From positions 1 through 41,837 of the forward strand of contig CAZTOE010000005.1 in NCBI GenBank assembly GCA_964615045.1: a stretch of 41,837 bases of DNA, given 5' to 3'. Source of the DNA: an uncultured Spirochaetales bacterium (lineage in GTDB: Bacteria; Myxococcota_A; UBA9160; PR03). Of this stretch, positions 4,265 to 32,099 are shown in pieces. The first letter of the stretch is position 1. Every line of letters starts with the position of its first letter. A program made the position numbers and the translations under genes. Below the pieces are notes generated by a model. The model saw nothing but the letters and a program-made list of their open reading frames with translations, was not told the DNA's origin and searched no databases.

Positions 4265-4570
4265 CTACTCCACCACGACGTGTTCTTCGGTGAGCAGGAT
4301 CACCAGATCACCGGAACCGCTCGTGGCGCTTTGCCGGGCGCGCTGTCCCTCCGGCTTGGAGAAGATCGCGTCCATCTCCTCCCGCGTCTTGAACCACACT
4401 TCGGCGACCCCGTCGTACTGCTGATCCGGCGTCGTGCAGAGATTGATGCGGTACTCGACGAGCCCCGGCCACTGCTTGACGCGTTCGGCGTGTTCTTCGA
4501 GCCACCACTTCTTGAAGGCCTCGAAGCCCATTCCGTCGGGTCGTTTGAGGATACCGATCACCTTGTACAT
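4265..4570 (-). CDS. EthD family protein
   Basis: MYKVIGILKRPDGM...WWLEEHA...YDGVAEVWF. AGGAG SD before ATG 4570. Confidence 0.85.
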   Translation of the reverse strand: MYKVIGILKRPDGMGFEAFKKWWLEEHAERVKQWPGLVEYRINLCTTPDQQYDGVAEVWFKTREEMDAIFSKPEGQRARQSATSGSGDLVILLTEEHVVVE

Positions 4571-14201: not shown

Positions 14202-15149
14202 ATGCCCAGTACGCGCCCGCCCGTGGACTACATCGAGCGCACCCGCGAACAGTATGCAGCCCTCGGCTACCCCCCCTACCAATGGGTGCACAGCGAGACG
14301 CCGCCGCCGTGGGCGCCGCTGCGCAAGCCCCTCTCCGAAGCGCGTCTCGGCCTCGTCGCTTCGGGAGGGATCTATGTCGAGGGGCAGGTCGCGTTTCACT
14401 ACAAGGACGACACGTCGTTCCGCATCGTCGACACGGCGACCCCCACCGATCGACTTCGCGCCACGCACTTCGCCTACGACCTCGCCGACGCGCGCAGTGA
14501 TCCGAATGTGGTATTTCCCCTCGATCCGCTCCGCGAGCTGGTGAAGGACGGAGTCCTCGGCGAGCTGTCGCCCCGCGCCTACACGTTCATGGGGGGCATT
14601 TATTCGTCGCGCAAAGTCCGCGAACTGCTCGCCCCCGAGATCGCGCGGCGCCTGGTCGAGGATCAGGTCGACCTCGTCCTGCTCGTTCCGGTCTGACCGG
14701 TGTGTCATCAGTCCGTGGGACTGATCGCACGCGAGATCGAGGGTCGGGGAATTCCCACCCTCTCGATGAGCAGCGCCTGGTCGATCACCGCGGCAGTCAA
14801 TCCGCCGCGCGCGCTCTATCTCGACTTTCCCCTCGGTCATACCACCGGCAAGCCCGCCGACCGTGCCTTGCAGCGCGCCATCGTGTCGGACGCCTTGCGC
14901 GGCTTCGAGCGTTTTCGAGAGCCCGGGAGCATCGAGAGGCTGCCCTATGAGTGGGCGGCGGACGACGCCTGGAAGGACCGCGTGATGCGCCCGCGTGCCG
15001 GCGAAGCAGCGGACGACGCGGATGCCTACGAAGACGACCGCGTGGAGCGGTTCGACACGCCACAGTATCAGTGCGAGCGCGATCGCGAGCTCGCCGAGGC
15101 GGCGCTCGCCGAGGGCCGCTGCGAAACCTGCGTCTGGGTCGAACCGTAG
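14202..15149 (+). CDS. Selenoprotein: glycine/sarcosine/betaine/D-proline reductase selenoprotein B family (PrdB/GrdB-like), 315 aa, Sec165 at TGA 14694-14696
   Basis: ORFs 14202-14696 and 14700-15149 are in frame. Read through, they give VDLVLLVPV-U-PVCHQSVGLIAREIE, the UxxC site of this family. N-half has KPLSEARLGLVASGG and DPNVVFPLD. SECIS-like hairpin follows. Confidence 0.88.
14700..14730 (+). promoter_or_regulatory. Putative bacterial SECIS element
   Basis: GTGTG-TC-ATCAGTCC-GTG-GGACTGAT-CGCAC: perfect 8-bp upper stem plus lower stem. The loop G lies 18 nt after the UGA. Confidence 0.8.
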
Positions 15150-18791: not shown

Positions 18792-20009
18792 CTAGAATTT
18801 GTCGAGTTCGAGGCCCAACACGTGACGCCCCAGTTGTTCGCTCACCCGATCCTGGTGGGCGTTGATGTGGAGCGGCATGGCCTGAAAGTCGCGATAGCGG
18901 CGCTCGAAGCTCGAACCCTCGCGCAGCCCGTTGCCCCCCAGCACGCGCAGGATCAGCCGCATCGCCTCGTCGCAGTGCTGCAACGCGGCCGTGCTGTGGC
19001 CCATCTGGCGCAGATAGTCCGCCTCGCTGGGCAGCGTCGTGCAACCGATGCGGCGGTCGACCTCTTCGCACCCGGTGTACACCGACGCCCGCGCGGCCTG
19101 CACCAACCACGCGGCGCGGCCGAGGTTGAGGTGGATGGTAGGCCGTTCCACCATCTTCACGCCCAGAATACCCCGCCGCGTTTGAATGTCCGCGCACGCC
19201 TCTTCGAGGGCCGCCTGCGCCACGCCTACCGCCTGCGCGCCGAGCCACAGGTCCGACAGCCCGACCCAGTCTTCGCGATAGCGGGCATGGAGCACCGGAA
19301 ACGACGCGCGTCGAAACTGCTCGGCTCGCTGGGCACCGAACCACGGCGCCCAGCGATGGGCGGGAATTTCCGCCTCCTCGTAGTGGATCGTGTCGGTCGC
19401 CGAGGCCCGCAGGCTCATGCCGTCCCAGGTGGGCTCGACCCGCACCCCCGGGCTGTCGCGACGCACGATCGTAAAGCGCAGATCGGGCGGGTCGCCCACC
19501 CTGCCGTCGCCGCGATCCATCCCGAAGGCGACACCGATCCATTCGCCGTAGCGGGCCCCCGAGCCGAAGTGAGCTTCGCCGTGCAGGGCGATGCGGTCGC
19601 CGTCCAGGCGCCCCAAGACCCGCGTGCCCGCGCCACCGGGGAAGCACACCCACTCGTGGGCTTCCACGATCGAACGCAGCAGCTCGGCGTGCTCCGGCCC
19701 CAACGCTCCGCAATAGAGGTGGAAGACGCAGAGATGGTTCCACAGGCACCACGCCGTCGACCCACAAGCCGTCGCCACGGCTTCGAGCTCGCGGGCGATT
19801 TGCCGGATCGATTCCTCGATCCCGCCGATCTCCCGCGCCGCGGAGAGCGCCATCAGCGGTGACGCCTTGATGGCGCGGATCACCTCAGGTGCCACGTCGC
19901 GGCTGCGGTCTGCCTCCGCCGCCTGCTCGGCGATCGCCGGGAGAAGGTCGCGCGCGCAGAGCTTGCCGGCCTCTGGGTACAAGTATCCGCGCAGCGGGCC
20001 TTCGCTCAA
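18792..20009 (-). CDS. Acyl-CoA dehydrogenase-fold flavin-dependent monooxygenase (HsaA/DszC-like)
   Basis: ACGSTAWC, HFGSG, TWDGMSLRASAT and FERRYRD motifs. TTG start at 20009 overlaps the nitroreductase stop. Confidence 0.82.
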   Translation of the reverse strand: MSEGPLRGYLYPEAGKLCARDLLPAIAEQAAEADRSRDVAPEVIRAIKASPLMALSAAREIGGIEESIRQIARELEAVATACGSTAWCLWNHLCVFHLYCGALGPEHAELLRSIVEAHEWVCFPGGAGTRVLGRLDGDRIALHGEAHFGSGARYGEWIGVAFGMDRGDGRVGDPPDLRFTIVRRDSPGVRVEPTWDGMSLRASATDTIHYEEAEIPAHRWAPWFGAQRAEQFRRASFPVLHARYREDWVGLSDLWLGAQAVGVAQAALEEACADIQTRRGILGVKMVERPTIHLNLGRAAWLVQAARASVYTGCEEVDRRIGCTTLPSEADYLRQMGHSTAALQHCDEAMRLILRVLGGNGLREGSSFERRYRDFQAMPLHINAHQDRVSEQLGRHVLGLELDKF

Positions 20010-20659
20010 CCCTCCTCCCCGGCGGTGGGAAAGGCGGCGCCGTAGCGGTCGAGGAACGCGATGTCGCGCACCGGGCGGCGCGAGAGCTTTTTCGGAAAGG
20101 GCTTTTGCGGGTAGCCCACCGCGAGCGTCGCGCACACCGCGATGTCCTCGGGGATGTCGAGCAGCTTCCTCAGGGCGGGTTCTTCGTGACACATGAGAGT
20201 GGTCAGGGCCGAACCGAGTCCTTCGTTGCGGCAGGCGAGCAGTAGGTTCTGCACGGCCGGGTAGATCGATGCGCCGCCCACCACCGAGAGCCGCCCGAGC
20301 TGGTGATCGGTCGGGTGGACATCGGAGAGATCGGCGCACACTACGATCAGCGCCGGGATCTCGTCCAGGTGGCGGGCGAAGTGATCCGCCGCGCCGAGCA
20401 TGTTGCGGCTTCCCTCCGCCCGGATTTGGCCGCCGCCGAGACCCTTCACATAGGTCTCCCAGTAGGGCAGGTAGAGGTCTCGAAGCGCCCGTTTTTTGTC
20501 GCGGTCGCGCACCACCAGGAAGCGCACCGGCTGGCGGTTGCCCCCGCTCGGCGCAAAGCGCGCCGCCGAGAGGACCCGCGTCAGCACCTCGTCGGGGATC
20601 GGGTCGGGTCGGTAGTAGCGACACGTTCCGTTGCTCTGAATGAGTTCTTGAAGTTCCAT
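20006..20659 (-). CDS. Nitroreductase family protein
   Basis: CRYYRPDPIP, APSGGNRQPVRF, QNLLLACRNEGLGS and LAVGYP motifs. Confidence 0.92.
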   Translation of the reverse strand: MELQELIQSNGTCRYYRPDPIPDEVLTRVLSAARFAPSGGNRQPVRFLVVRDRDKKRALRDLYLPYWETYVKGLGGGQIRAEGSRNMLGAADHFARHLDEIPALIVVCADLSDVHPTDHQLGRLSVVGGASIYPAVQNLLLACRNEGLGSALTTLMCHEEPALRKLLDIPEDIAVCATLAVGYPQKPFPKKLSRRPVRDIAFLDRYGAAFPTAGEEG

Positions 20660-20675
20660 CGATGCTCCGTCGCGT

Positions 20676-21293
20676 TCAGGGCGTCCGCTGCAGCGGCTCG
20701 CCGCTCTCGGCGGCTTGCTGGATGCCCGCATCGAGCTCCAAGCCCAACCCATCCGCCAGCCGCGTCAGATAGTTGAAGATCCCCACGATATGGGCGACCT
20801 CGAGGCAGGCGCGATCGTCGAAGCCCATCTCGCGCAGCGGCTGCCAATCGCCCTCCACCATCCGCGTCGGTTGGGCGGAGAGCTTCTCGGCGACCTCCAG
20901 GAGCGCGCGCTCCCGCTCGCCGAGCCCGGCCACCTCGCGCCAGCGGCGCTCCGCGATCGCCCGCGAGAGTCCTCGCGATCCGCCCTCGACACGCAGAAAC
21001 TCTGCGTGGGACTGCGTTCAGTAGAAGCAATCTTGCGCGGCGGCTGCGACCCCGGCGACCATCTCCCGCTCGCGCCGGCTGAGCGTTCGCTCGGGCGCGA
21101 ACATGATCGCGTTGTAGAGCTGCATGAAGGGCGGGCCGATCTCGGGGTGACTGATGATCAAGCGCCCCATGGCCGGCACGAACCCGAAGGAGTACGGCGA
21201 TCCCGCCATGGCCGGACGGAGCTGCGCCTCGCTCGGAAGCCGAACCCACGCTCCCGGCTCGCCCTTCGCGACGCGGTTGCTGTGTACGCTCAT
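20676..21293 (-). CDS. Selenoprotein: AhpD/carboxymuconolactone-decarboxylase-like peroxidase-related protein, 205 aa, Sec92 at TGA 21020-21018
   Basis: The upstream half ends LSRREREMVAGVAAAAQDCFY-TGA and the frame continues TQSHAEFLR...NYLTRLADGLG. This gives the exact AhpD motif E-x11-C-x2-(U)-x3-H. SECIS-like hairpin follows. Confidence 0.88.
20990..21008 (-). promoter_or_regulatory. Putative bacterial SECIS element
   Basis: Minus strand CACGCAGA-GTT-TCTGCGTG: perfect 8-bp stem. The loop G lies 17 nt after the UGA. Confidence 0.78.
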
Positions 21294-21410
21294 CGGATGC
21301 CTCCCCGCGAGCGGCAGGCTCGCGCGACAATCGGAGGCCTGCCAGGGTACACTTCCCGGCCGCCGGCGCTCGACTGCGCCGCACAGCCAGCCGACGTCAA
21401 GGGAGAACCG

Positions 21411-22634
21411 ATGAGTCAAGCCATGAGTCAAGGCATTCTGAGCGGGCTTCGGGTGATCGATATGGCCACCTATATCTTCGGGCCGGCCAGCACCACGGTG
21501 ATGTCCGATTTTGGGGCCGAAGTCGTCAAGATCGAGAGCCCCGGGATCGGGGATCCCTACCGCTACACGCACCTGATGCCGCCCTTCGAACCCAACGAGC
21601 TCGACTACATGTTCCAGCTCGACAATCGCAACAAGCGAGGAATCGTGCTCGACGTGCGGGTCGATGCCGCCCGCGAGGCGTTGCTCGAGCTCGTGCGCGG
21701 CACCGACGTCTTCGTCACCAACTTTCCACCCCGGGTGCTCGAGAAGCTCCGGATTCGCTACGAGGATCTGGCGCCCCAGAACGACCGCTTGATCTACGCC
21801 CAGGTGACCGGTTACGGCGAGAACGGTGATGAGATCGACAAGCCCGGTTTTGACGCGACGGCCTACTGGGCGCGCACCGGTCTCATGGACGGCGTGCGCC
21901 CCCCGGACGCCGAACCCGCGCTCTCCGCTCCCGGGATGGGGGACCATCCCAGCGCCATGGCGCTCTTCGGCGGCATCATGCTGGCGCTCTACAAACGCGA
22001 GAAGACGGGCAAGGGGTCCAAGGTTTCGAGTTCCCTGATGGCGAACGGCGCCTGGGCGAACGGCTGCGCGATCGCGTCGGTACTCGCCGGCTGCCCGCAG
22101 ATCCGCGGCGTCCGGCGAGAAGCTCCGCCCAACGCGCTGATCAACCAATATCGGACCCGCGACGACCGTTTCTTCCTGCTCGTCGTCATCACGCCCGACA
22201 AGGACTGGGTGCGCTTCGCGCGAGCCATCGGTCGCCCCGAGCTACCCGAGGATCCACGCTTCGCGACCAAGGAGGCGCGCAGCGAGAACGCCCGCGCGTT
22301 GTTCGAGATCCTCGACGACGTTTTCAGCTCCCGGGACTTTGCGGACTGGAAGAAGATCCTGGACGACGCCCAGATTACCTTTGGCGTCGTCGAACGCACC
22401 GACGAGACGCCCCACGACAACCAGATGCGCGAGAACGATCTGTTCGTCGAGGTGTCGCACGAGGAGATGAGCAAGGTCCAGGTCGTGAACAGCCCGATCT
22501 GGCTCGGCGGGGAGTCCAAACGGCCCAGCACCCGTGCCCCCAAGCTGGGCGAACACACCGAAGAGGTGCTGGCCGAGATCGGCTACGACGCGGACCGCAT
22601 CCGGGCGCTGCGCGAAGCGGGCGGCCTGGGATAA
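21411..22634 (+). CDS. CaiB/BaiF family (class III) CoA-transferase
   Basis: LSGLRVID, GAEVVKIE, NRNKRGI and APKLGEHT motifs. GGAG SD before ATG 21411. Confidence 0.93.
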   Translation: MSQAMSQGILSGLRVIDMATYIFGPASTTVMSDFGAEVVKIESPGIGDPYRYTHLMPPFEPNELDYMFQLDNRNKRGIVLDVRVDAAREALLELVRGTDVFVTNFPPRVLEKLRIRYEDLAPQNDRLIYAQVTGYGENGDEIDKPGFDATAYWARTGLMDGVRPPDAEPALSAPGMGDHPSAMALFGGIMLALYKREKTGKGSKVSSSLMANGAWANGCAIASVLAGCPQIRGVRREAPPNALINQYRTRDDRFFLLVVITPDKDWVRFARAIGRPELPEDPRFATKEARSENARALFEILDDVFSSRDFADWKKILDDAQITFGVVERTDETPHDNQMRENDLFVEVSHEEMSKVQVVNSPIWLGGESKRPSTRAPKLGEHTEEVLAEIGYDADRIRALREAGGLG

Positions 22635-30201: not shown

Positions 30202-31022
30202 GAGCTTTCCTCGGGCGCAGAAGTCAGGGGCCGGGGCGCGGCGTCTTGCGTGGCTTCGCGCAAGGCGCTGCGGGCGATCCGCGTCACCCAGGTAGTGACG
30301 CCCACGGTGGCCAGGAGTCCGAGTCCCAGCACCGCGTAGTAGCCGGTGTCACGAGGCGTCTCGGCGCCGCCCGCGAGCGCGGCGACTTCGCCGGCGAGCC
30401 TGCCGTAGTAGACGTAGAGCAGCGTCCCCGGGAGCATCCCAGGTGAGGCGAGCAGGTAGTCGCGCAGCGAAATGCGCGTGAGGCCGAGCGCGTAGTTCAG
30501 AAATGTGAACGGGAAGGCTGGCGAGAGCCGCAGCAGGAACACGATGCGAGCGCCCCGCGCCGCGATGGCGCGGTCGAACGCCGCGAAACGCGCATTGCCC
30601 GCGACGCGCCGCTGCACGGCCGGACGCGCCAGGTAGCGAGCGATCACGAAGGCCAACGCCGATCCCAGCGTGGCAGCCGCGAAAACCGTGACGGTCCCGA
30701 TCCCCAAACCGAAAACGGCCCCCGCCACCAGGGTGAGCGCCGAACCCGGCACAAAAGCGGCCACGGCCACGACGTAGCCGGCGGCAAAAACCACCGGTCC
30801 CCACGCGCCGAGTTCCTGAACCCAGGTCGCGGACGCGAGCACGGCATCGCCGATCTGACGCCCGCCGGCGACGAGGACAGCGAGCCCGGCGATCAGCAGA
30901 GCACCCCGGAGCCACGAGAACCGCGAGGCCCGTTGCGGCTCGGACTCCAAGCCATCGGTGGGCGCGTCGGTACCCGCATGGGTGCCCTCGCTGGGCCTCG
31001 CGTCGGTATTCGAAACCGCCAT
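30198..31022 (-). CDS. TVP38/TMEM64 (DedA/SNARE-associated) family membrane protein
   Basis: PGSALTLVAGAVFG, LLRLSPAFPF and NYALGLT motifs. Confidence 0.9.
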   Translation of the reverse strand: MAVSNTDARPSEGTHAGTDAPTDGLESEPQRASRFSWLRGALLIAGLAVLVAGGRQIGDAVLASATWVQELGAWGPVVFAAGYVVAVAAFVPGSALTLVAGAVFGLGIGTVTVFAAATLGSALAFVIARYLARPAVQRRVAGNARFAAFDRAIAARGARIVFLLRLSPAFPFTFLNYALGLTRISLRDYLLASPGMLPGTLLYVYYGRLAGEVAALAGGAETPRDTGYYAVLGLGLLATVGVTTWVTRIARSALREATQDAAPRPLTSAPEESS

Positions 31023-31100
31023 CGAACGTCGTCTCCCGGGCGCTCCGCCCTGGTATATCGTGCAGGGATACGCCGCCCGGCCGTTTCGGTTACGCGTCGC

Positions 31101-32099
31101 TCACGAAGTCAGCGCACCGCCGCAGCTCGATCCCGAACCCGCCGTGCAGCCGAAGCAGTGGCGCGCCGTGACAATCGCCGCGCCGGTCAGCGCTGCGCAG
31201 CTCCCGAGCTCGAAGAGGTTCGAGGGGCCGTTCAGGGGAATCTGGAGCATCTGGTTGAAGTCGCAATCGTAGAGTCGCCCGTCCCAACCGACCGACACCG
31301 TGTGGCGACACATCAGCGCGGAGACCGTGGCGGGGTTGAAGTGTGCGACCAGCAGGGAGAGATACTCGGCCTCGCGACCCTCCCGGGCCAGAAAATCCGC
31401 AAAGCGTTTGATGGGCATGTTGGCGAGCGTGAGCAACTGGTTGAACTCGACGCCGAACGACTCGCGCAGCTCGCGGTGATAGCGGGCCTCGAGCTCCGCC
31501 TGGGAGGGCGGGAGCGAGGCACCGAGAGGATTGTAGACCAGGTCCAGCACGAGCCGTGGATCCCGGCCGTAGCCCAGCCGGTTGAGGGTGTGCAGGGCGT
31601 CCATGCTCTTCTGGAACACGCCGCGCCCCCGCTGCCGGTCGACGTTCTCGCGCGTGTAACAGGGCAGCGAGGCGACGATCGAGACCCGTTGTTGCGCCAG
31701 AAACTCGGCGGTGTCTTCTTGTCCCTCCTCGAAGAGCACCGTCAGGTTGCAGCGGTCGATCACCTCTTTGCCGAGGGCGCGCGCTCCGCGCACGAGCGCG
31801 CGGAAGTTCGGATTGAGCTCCGGCGCGCCGCCCGTCAGATCGACGCGCGCCACGGAAGGGCTGCGCTCGAGTAGCTCGAGCACGCGACGCGCGGTTGCCG
31901 CGTCCATCATCTCGTTTCGCTTCGGCCCCGCCTCGACGTGACAGTGGTGACACGCCTGATTGCAGCGCTTGCCCACGTTCACCTGGAGGGTGGTCGCTTC
32001 GGCGCGGCGCAGGACCGCCCAACCGTGCTGCCGCAGCGTCGCGGCGAAGCTGGGCGTCGGATCGTTCGCCACGGCAGTGGTGATGGGCTCGGCGGACAT
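31101..32099 (-). CDS. arsS: Radical SAM protein, ArsS/DUF3641 (rSAM selenodomain-associated) family, Cys form
   Basis: LQVNVGKRCNQACHHCHV (CxxxCxxC), DLTGGAPE, LYDCDFNQML and C-terminal HCFGCTAGSGSSCGGAL. Confidence 0.88.
   Translation of the reverse strand: MSAEPITTAVANDPTPSFAATLRQHGWAVLRRAEATTLQVNVGKRCNQACHHCHVEAGPKRNEMMDAATARRVLELLERSPSVARVDLTGGAPELNPNFRALVRGARALGKEVIDRCNLTVLFEEGQEDTAEFLAQQRVSIVASLPCYTRENVDRQRGRGVFQKSMDALHTLNRLGYGRDPRLVLDLVYNPLGASLPPSQAELEARYHRELRESFGVEFNQLLTLANMPIKRFADFLAREGREAEYLSLLVAHFNPATVSALMCRHTVSVGWDGRLYDCDFNQMLQIPLNGPSNLFELGSCAALTGAAIVTARHCFGCTAGSGSSCGGALTS

Follow-up and report, generated by a model that had tools for sequence, protein, structure and literature searches.

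A predicted AhpD-like CxxU selenoprotein gene with a SECIS-type hairpin in the codons of its catalytic helix

The stretch of DNA analysed here (41,837 nucleotides, referred to as the window) carries on its minus strand a gene that, judged from its sequence, is a real and ordinary selenoprotein gene, the predicted product of which belongs to the AhpD-like CxxU family (TIGR01926/COG2128, YciW). According to the reading that is favoured, to which a probability of about 0.9 is given, the gene is intact, the UGA at codon 92 would be read as selenocysteine (Sec) by means of SelB and a hairpin, and the product would be an AhpD-fold redox protein of YciW/COG2128, the family described by the TIGR01926 model. 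The window gene is a further member of an already published family, and it raises no new biological question because the family, the CxxU motif and their abundance have been in print since 2005. The main value of the analysis is a correction of the annotation, in that standard ORF calling yields the tail of a false 376-aa ORF and an 85-aa fragment, and the correct reading adds one selenoprotein to the genome. The gene also provides a clean example of a SECIS hairpin that appears to be constrained at synonymous sites within a catalytic helix.

The reading frame is opened by an ATG at 21293 (minus strand), ends at a terminal TGA at 20676-20678 and contains one internal TGA, codon 92 (Table 1). 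The codons around it read GAT TGC TTC TAC TGA ACG CAG TCC CAC, that is D-C-F-Y-(TGA)-T-Q-S-H, within the extended local reading A-A-Q-D-C-F-Y-(TGA)-T-Q-S-H-A-E-F-L-R. The initial annotation of this DNA, made from the sequence alone, had given the same residues with U at the TGA, and the frame that starts at the 21293 ATG returns exactly the same codons. It had also counted 113 further sense codons of AhpD-like sequence; this number stands, since the frame remains open until 20676-20678 and is conserved. In the predicted protein, the spacing of the motif is E77-x11-C89-x2-U92-x3-H96 (C89-F-Y-U92). The ORF list splits the gene in two, the N-terminal half being the tail of the 376-aa ORF (21018..22148, minus strand) and the rest being represented by the 85-aa ORF (20676..20933, minus strand), so that the earlier remark that only fragments are visible in the ORF track was correct. 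The Pfam CMD domain spans the UGA, and this situation is unique among the 139 in-frame TGAs of the window that were scanned because they are flanked in both directions by 48 or more open codons. The readthrough frame of the gene exceeds what is expected by chance.

Table 1. Positions in the window of the predicted selenoprotein gene, its main codons, its RNA signals and the adjoining genes.
Feature	Position	Strand	Basis
Complete CDS of the AhpD-like selenoprotein (predicted), 205 residues plus terminal TGA	20676..21293	-	Sequence and translation
In-frame UGA, codon 92 (predicted Sec, U92)	21018..21020	-	Translation and orthologue alignment
Shine-Dalgarno-like GGGGAGG, 6 nt 5' of the ATG	21300..21306	-	Sequence; putative function
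Glu77 codon, predicted proton-relay Glu, matching Glu118 of M. tuberculosis AhpD	21063..21065	-	14/14 in alignment; role as described in PMC3141380
Cys89 codon, first Cys of CxxU, predicted resolving residue, equivalent to Cys130	21027..21029	-	14/14; roles as described in PMC3141380 and PMC6626918
His96 codon, corresponding to His137; its three bases open the hairpin stem	21006..21008	-	14/14 in alignment
SECIS-type hairpin (putative), 19 nt, 8-bp stem, loop GUU, overlapping codons H96-R101	20990..21008	-	Folding and alignment
Nitroreductase-family gene, 16 nt after the selenoprotein gene	20006-20659		PF00881, 89.6 bits
Acyl-CoA-dehydrogenase-fold gene, next after the nitroreductase gene	18792-19991		
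Family III CoA-transferase gene, divergent	from about 21420	+	

The conservation of the UGA among orthologues is the first line of evidence. A TGA is found at the codon-92 column in 91 of the 91 orthologue loci that were obtained as DNA, a collection composed of the window, 5 genomes of the same class, 5 species-representative genomes and 80 metagenome loci. A search of the class (E<=1e-30) identified the gene in 6 of 225 genomes, each with one TGA, and a search of the phylum with a Cys form as the query identified it in 3 of 401 genomes, all with TGA. The five species-representative copies show 55-67% identity and come from genomes labelled as an Alphaproteobacteria MAG, Candidatus Binatia, Pirellulales, Chloroflexota and Dehalococcoidia; the metagenome loci, which are the best 80 of 480 matches, show 60-72%. 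Identity past the TGA is undiminished (55-72% across the orthologues). The initial annotation had considered the case in which close relatives would all carry TGC or TGT, and the opposite was observed. It had also placed the UGA on the second Cys of the motif E-x11-C-x2-C-x3-H and had proposed a search for homologues with Cys at column 92. Such homologues exist: when protein-database relatives were collected (102 matches at E<=1e-10), Cys occupied the Sec column in 13 of them, as it does in the PDB relatives 2oyo and 6k40. The rest of the collection consists of 60 C-terminal stubs that start at query residues 93-102, 5 N-terminal stubs that end exactly at residue 91, 12 other partial matches, and 12 entries in which the Sec column holds W (6), G (2) or other residues (4). 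Separately, the copy from a Chloroflexota MAG (L052, 3250-3260) displays a TAA two codons after the UGA, at a position where the others have CAA (Gln), and corresponds either to a broken copy or to an assembly error.

The second line of evidence comes from the RNA hairpin. It begins 9 nt 3' of the UGA, as had been noted from the start, and its 8-bp stem with the loop GUU lies at 21008-20990. Folding of the hairpin gives -11.1 kcal/mol, a stability reached by 0 of 200 dinucleotide shuffles (z -2.73). A longer stretch of 81 nt has an ordinary stability (z -0.56) and only the local hairpin stands out. The Rfam scan of 20600-21400 returned no matching model, its two matches being at chance level and on the other strand. 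For 79 distinct orthologue sequences (76 distinct rows), pairing in the helix extends to 93.1% of 608 cells; shifting the 3' partners by 1-3 columns lowers this value to 12.8-71.7%. The shuffle control of this pairing analysis is not to be taken as a probability. Changes on both sides of a pair that keep the helix occur at three pairs, all of them in the Pirellulales copy L051, where two residues of the protein change as well (E to R and L to A). At one pair, G-U replaces A-U in thirteen rows.

Because the pairing is mostly a conservation signal, which the protein motif alone could produce, synonymous codons were compared. This comparison used 67 distinct genes with the residues H-A-E-F-L-R (median GC3 0.82) and set the codons of the stem against those used for the same amino acids elsewhere in those genes. 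The Ala of the stem is encoded by GCA in 55 and by GCG in 12 of the 67 genes, with no GCC or GCT, and GCA accounts for 9% of the Ala codons elsewhere. Similarly, Phe is encoded by TTT in 62/67 (14% elsewhere), Arg by CGT in 62/67 (11% elsewhere) and Leu by CTG in 67/67 (38% elsewhere); the His96 codon is CAC in all 67 genes of this type. The fixation of rare codons in the stem argues that the stem is held by selection on the RNA, which is the level at which we consider the constraint to operate on the strength of these comparisons. The case of an unconserved hairpin, which the initial annotation had regarded as damaging to its proposal, does not apply: most cells are paired and the rare stem codons are fixed. 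About 9 of the 79 distinct sequences, which form a subclade with H-T-Q/E-F/Y-L-R (loci L049, L055, L059-L061, L067, L068, L077, L117 and L126), are without an in-register helix. Alternative hairpins can be drawn for this subclade, and their folds are no better than those of shuffles; a shifted helix, or a 5-bp helix farther downstream with the loop CGUGUU, may be formed.

The assignment of the product to the AhpD-like proteins is based on profile and structure analyses of the 205-residue product, which were performed with C in place of U. The NCBIfam model TIGR01926 'peroxidase-related enzyme' matches with 123.5 bits (cutoff 81.8; 116 bits in a six-frame search of the genome) and Pfam CMD (PF02627) with 43.4 bits (cutoff 23). 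The model TIGR00778 ahpD_dom gives 26.7 bits, marginally below its cutoff of 27.8, and the spacing of the motif is nonetheless identical. The PDB relatives 2oyo and 6k40 (E about 1e-21 for both) carry the motif C-x-Y-C-x-x-S-H, which is aligned with C89...U92...H96. An AlphaFold model computed from 14 homologues (pLDDT 91.6, pTM 0.88) is all-helical, with ten helices, and its ten best Foldseek matches in the PDB are all AhpD-like chains, with 6k40 at the top (TM 0.77/0.85). E77, C89, Y91 and H96 are invariant in the 14/14 aligned homologues. The description of the product as an AhpD/CMD-like protein thus agrees with Pfam CMD, TIGR01926, the PDB relatives and Foldseek. Membership in NF041238 AhpD_rel_CFYUT was considered and rejected, as the score is 69 bits where 175 are required and the match is restricted to positions 210-342 of the 357-position model. 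A weak match of P0001 to TIGR04169 'arsenosugar biosynthesis-associated peroxidase-like' was also recorded (22.7 bits, cutoff 120).

E77, C89, Y91, U92 and H96 can be placed in a scheme, which we infer throughout, from Sec insertion and the catalytic cycle to the identity of the partner and of the reductant. SelB carrying Sec-tRNA(Sec) would be recruited by the 19-nt hairpin and would decode the UGA at codon 92 as Sec. The active site would then be composed of Glu77, Cys89, Tyr91, Sec92 and His96 in an all-helical AhpD fold. In M. tuberculosis AhpD, the relay is described as consisting of Glu118, Cys130, His132, Cys133 and His137, and in P. aeruginosa PA0269 Tyr replaces His132 (PMC3141380). 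The mixed disulfide with Cys61 of AhpC is reported to be formed by Cys133 of the M. tuberculosis protein and not by Cys130, which is partly buried (PMC6626918). Sec92 would be located at the place of this exposed attacking Cys133 and thus would occupy the attacking position, where such selenoproteins usually place Sec; CxxU is the motif listed for AhpD-like proteins in the Sargasso Sea survey (PMC1088965). From there, the target of the attack by Sec92 may be either an oxidised partner, in the form of a peroxiredoxin cysteine, or a peroxide itself; Cys89 would resolve the adduct to generate an intramolecular selenenylsulfide, and a cellular reductant would re-reduce the latter.

The alternative that survives best accepts the gene as a true selenoprotein gene and proposes a different function for its product, namely a stand-alone selenol enzyme that takes no part in AhpC recycling and acts, for instance, directly on organic hydroperoxides or in a reductive dehalogenation of the Bmp8 type. 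This is a tentative possibility that we consider rather unlikely. Among solved structures, the product is closest to 'uncharacterized peroxidase-related proteins' and to DR1765 rather than to canonical AhpD, and the score of TIGR00778 falls just short of its cutoff, although the full set of AhpD proton-relay residues is invariant. The Bmp8 debrominase is similar in structure (TM 0.73), but the sequence identity with it is only about 20%. The nitroreductase-family gene 16 nt downstream in the window would also fit a stand-alone enzyme, but it is present near 0 of the 90 orthologue loci. Finally, ahpC is absent beside the gene both in the window and in the 24 loci the flanks of which were scanned, whereas an AhpC is encoded elsewhere in the window genome, on contig C46 (328.4 bits, cutoff 272).

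The gene neighbourhood as a whole is variable. None of the four neighbours in the window recurs near the 90 orthologue loci. A conserved operon partner was sought among 140 flanking ORFs of 24 loci with Pfam and was discarded, as the neighbours are varied and none is common: a luciferase-like monooxygenase is present at 3 loci, MFS transporters at 3, and a chorismate-binding protein together with a GDPD protein at 3 closely related loci. Since there is no recurrent neighbour, the gene behaves as a self-contained unit. Scanning of 19900-21600 detected no promoter-like site and one terminator-like site, which falls within the nitroreductase gene, on the other strand.

A second alternative would have the UGA decoded as Trp, Gly or Cys, either because the code is reassigned or by near-cognate suppression. 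The observation that could favour it is the presence of W in six and G in two of the database relatives at this column (P0002, P0006, P0010, P0011, P0017, P0078, P0092 and P0094). These residues are taken to be TGAs that were printed as W or G by gene callers using genetic codes 4 and 25, respectively; if they are indeed such calls on short contigs, selenoprotein genes would be a source of false alternative-code calls. In the window, TGA elsewhere is an ordinary stop. The Pfam profiles of ADH_zinc_N_2, 4HBT_3C, HRDC, DUF3641, Maf and TatD end 4-8 residues before six other TGAs, and TGA also terminates the gene itself and 2-3 of its five neighbouring genes. Moreover, the same genome, a draft of 567 contigs that is 91.7% complete, encodes a dedicated machinery for Sec, with selA at 501.7, selB at 318, selD at 262.3 and tRNA-Sec at 70.2 bits, all of them above the curated cutoffs. 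The tRNA was identified by ARAGORN as SeC with the anticodon TCA. This result supplies the sel genes that the initial annotation had asked to be confirmed. In addition, the column corresponds to the redox Cys of CxxC, a classic site of Sec/Cys exchange (PMC1088965). Reading of the UGA as an amino acid other than Sec is in consequence regarded as very improbable. Even less credible is the proposal that an AhpD-like gene which once encoded Cys has acquired this TGA by nonsense mutation, and is now a pseudogene, or that the codon was misread in sequencing or assembly, for although Cys-form homologues exist (13/102), TGA is one base from TGC and TGT, the draft is fragmented into 567 contigs and broken copies such as L052 with its extra TAA occur, the same TGA is found in 91/91 independent loci from several phyla with the protein conserved beyond it, the hairpin and the rare codons are conserved and the Sec machinery of the genome is complete.

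With decoding as Sec retained as the favoured reading, the distribution of the gene can be considered. Searches of 16 further genomes from the family to which the window belongs, among them one of the same genus that is 87% complete, did not reveal it, and it is therefore not a core gene. The distribution is patchy, with few genomes of the class and phylum carrying the gene and yet copies that are 55-67% identical in distant phyla. In a genome of the same order, the locus L026 (G017:C1:791630-791794) consists only of a 55-residue stretch that corresponds to query residues 131-185 with 64% identity and is devoid of the N-terminal half; it is possibly the remnant of a lost copy. The phylogenetic tree is a quick version, with the careful search unfinished, and its root lies on one very long outgroup branch (P0096) and is unreliable. 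In it, the window gene clusters (SH-aLRT 94) with that of genome G027, a single metagenome locus and a Cys form. Eleven ingroup Cys forms are dispersed between Sec forms; P0096, the outgroup itself, makes up the 12th Cys row. On this quick tree, 6 changes between Sec and Cys are counted over the 12 Cys rows, and at least 3 are forced by well-supported branches. No direction of change was drawn, because the root is unreliable. A broader proposal would be that the subclade is almost obligately Sec and represents a single-gene cassette moving between phyla with its SECIS inside the catalytic-helix codons His96-Arg101, that Cys forms arise from it repeatedly and that the product is a stand-alone selenol reductase or peroxidase and not a recycler of AhpC. 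This combination is speculative and appears improbable to us.

Other Sec-like loci were recorded in the course of the analysis. At 14202-15146 of the window (plus strand), a PrdB/GrdB-like gene starts directly after an enoyl-CoA-hydratase-like gene and contains a TGA (14694-14696) in the context V-P-V-U-P-V-C (UxxC). The Pfam GRDB match ends two residues before this TGA, and the readthrough product scores 67 bits with TIGR01918 (cutoff 65.45) and 168.9 with the PrdB model, below its cutoff of 300. This gene is probably the 'selenoprotein 1' of the initial annotation. At about 30891-31313 (minus strand), the C-terminus of a DUF3641 protein shows C-G-G-A-L-T-S before its TGA and corresponds to a Cys form; DUF3641 forms the C-terminal part of radical SAM proteins of the ArsS type, a group that includes selenoproteins. 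Another candidate TGA, at 4422 (plus strand, 'SYCUSG'), was rejected, as its frame resembles antisense noise and has no Pfam match. Further candidate loci were found in the genome of the window (G000) at C195:1189-1689 (minus), C288:562-1047 (plus), C3:31969-32466 (plus), C72:16620-16970 (minus) and C509:1326-1685 (plus) (see also L150, L151, L144 and L145). Those other than C3 comprise AhpD/CMD-like frames with the TGA in C-Y-L-U and C-H-L-U, a peroxiredoxin in which it lies in T-P-G-U and a Prx-like frame in which it lies in W-U-P-F-C, all of them positions classically occupied by Sec. The window genome appears to be rich in selenoproteins.

Regarding the family itself, 27 sequences of AhpD-like selenoproteins with CxxU, assigned to COG2128, were predicted from the Sargasso Sea metagenome (PMC1088965), and the Global Ocean Sampling (GOS) survey lists 299 sequences from 37 samples as 'AhpD-like 1' (PMC2398784). 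In a study of sequenced genomes, the family is entered as 'AhpD-like (COG2128)' (PMC1794560). A 2022 review tabulates an AhpD-like protein, COG2128 (YciW)/TIGR01926, with CxxU (PMC9312934), the table of a 2026 review contains the row 'AhpD-like protein, TIGR01926, CxxU' (PMC13188914), and a 2026 database paper uses the AhpD-like family as its browsing example (PMC13326102). The statement of the initial annotation that such proteins are known from metagenome surveys is thereby supported, but it understated the documentation, which includes an NCBIfam model and the 2022 and 2026 review tables. A literature search outside subscription journals retrieved no 75Se work on AhpD selenocysteine proteins, in keeping with the earlier view that the family is largely uncharacterised.

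In comparison with this AhpD-like family (COG2128/YciW, TIGR01926), the window protein shares the model, the CxxU motif with Sec predicted at the second Cys and the downstream SECIS-type hairpin, and nothing essential differs. The subclade studied here is composed almost entirely of Sec forms, which come mostly from metagenome contigs of non-marine appearance. NF041238, annotated as 'alkylhydroperoxidase-related (seleno)protein' and identified in the 2026 review as 'hypothetical protein 1' of the Sargasso Sea study (PMC13188914), has exactly the same local motif, C-F-Y-U-T, as the window protein, and the C-terminal domains of the two are related; the window protein, in contrast, is about 150 residues shorter, and the sequence and position of the hairpin differ. 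Twelve open frames of ~400 aa with N-E-C-F-Y-U-T and a TGA at the same column were also observed among the genome relatives (L028, L030, L032-L035, L038-L040 and L043-L045), and they probably represent the NF041238 family. Their hairpin has a 7-bp GC-rich stem and a 5-nt loop and lies about 20 nt after the UGA, with a compensatory pair change in one copy (G020).

The best matches in both sequence and fold are DR1765 of D. radiodurans (6k40) and 2oyo of D. geothermalis, which have the same relay residues and carry Cys at both positions, whereas the window protein has a predicted Sec at the second; the identity between DR1765 and the window protein is 30%. The DR1765 knockout is described as sensitive to H2O2 in a CxxC-dependent manner (PMC8945050, citing Zhao et al. 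2020). M. tuberculosis AhpD is a more distant relative: DR1765, the nearest solved relative of the window protein, is given as 12% identical to it (PMC8945050), and the window protein itself shows very low sequence identity with it, has Tyr in place of His132 and has no adjacent ahpC. Nevertheless, the two proteins share the E-x11-C-x2-C-x3-H spacing and the relay residues, with the predicted Sec of the window protein at the position of Cys133.
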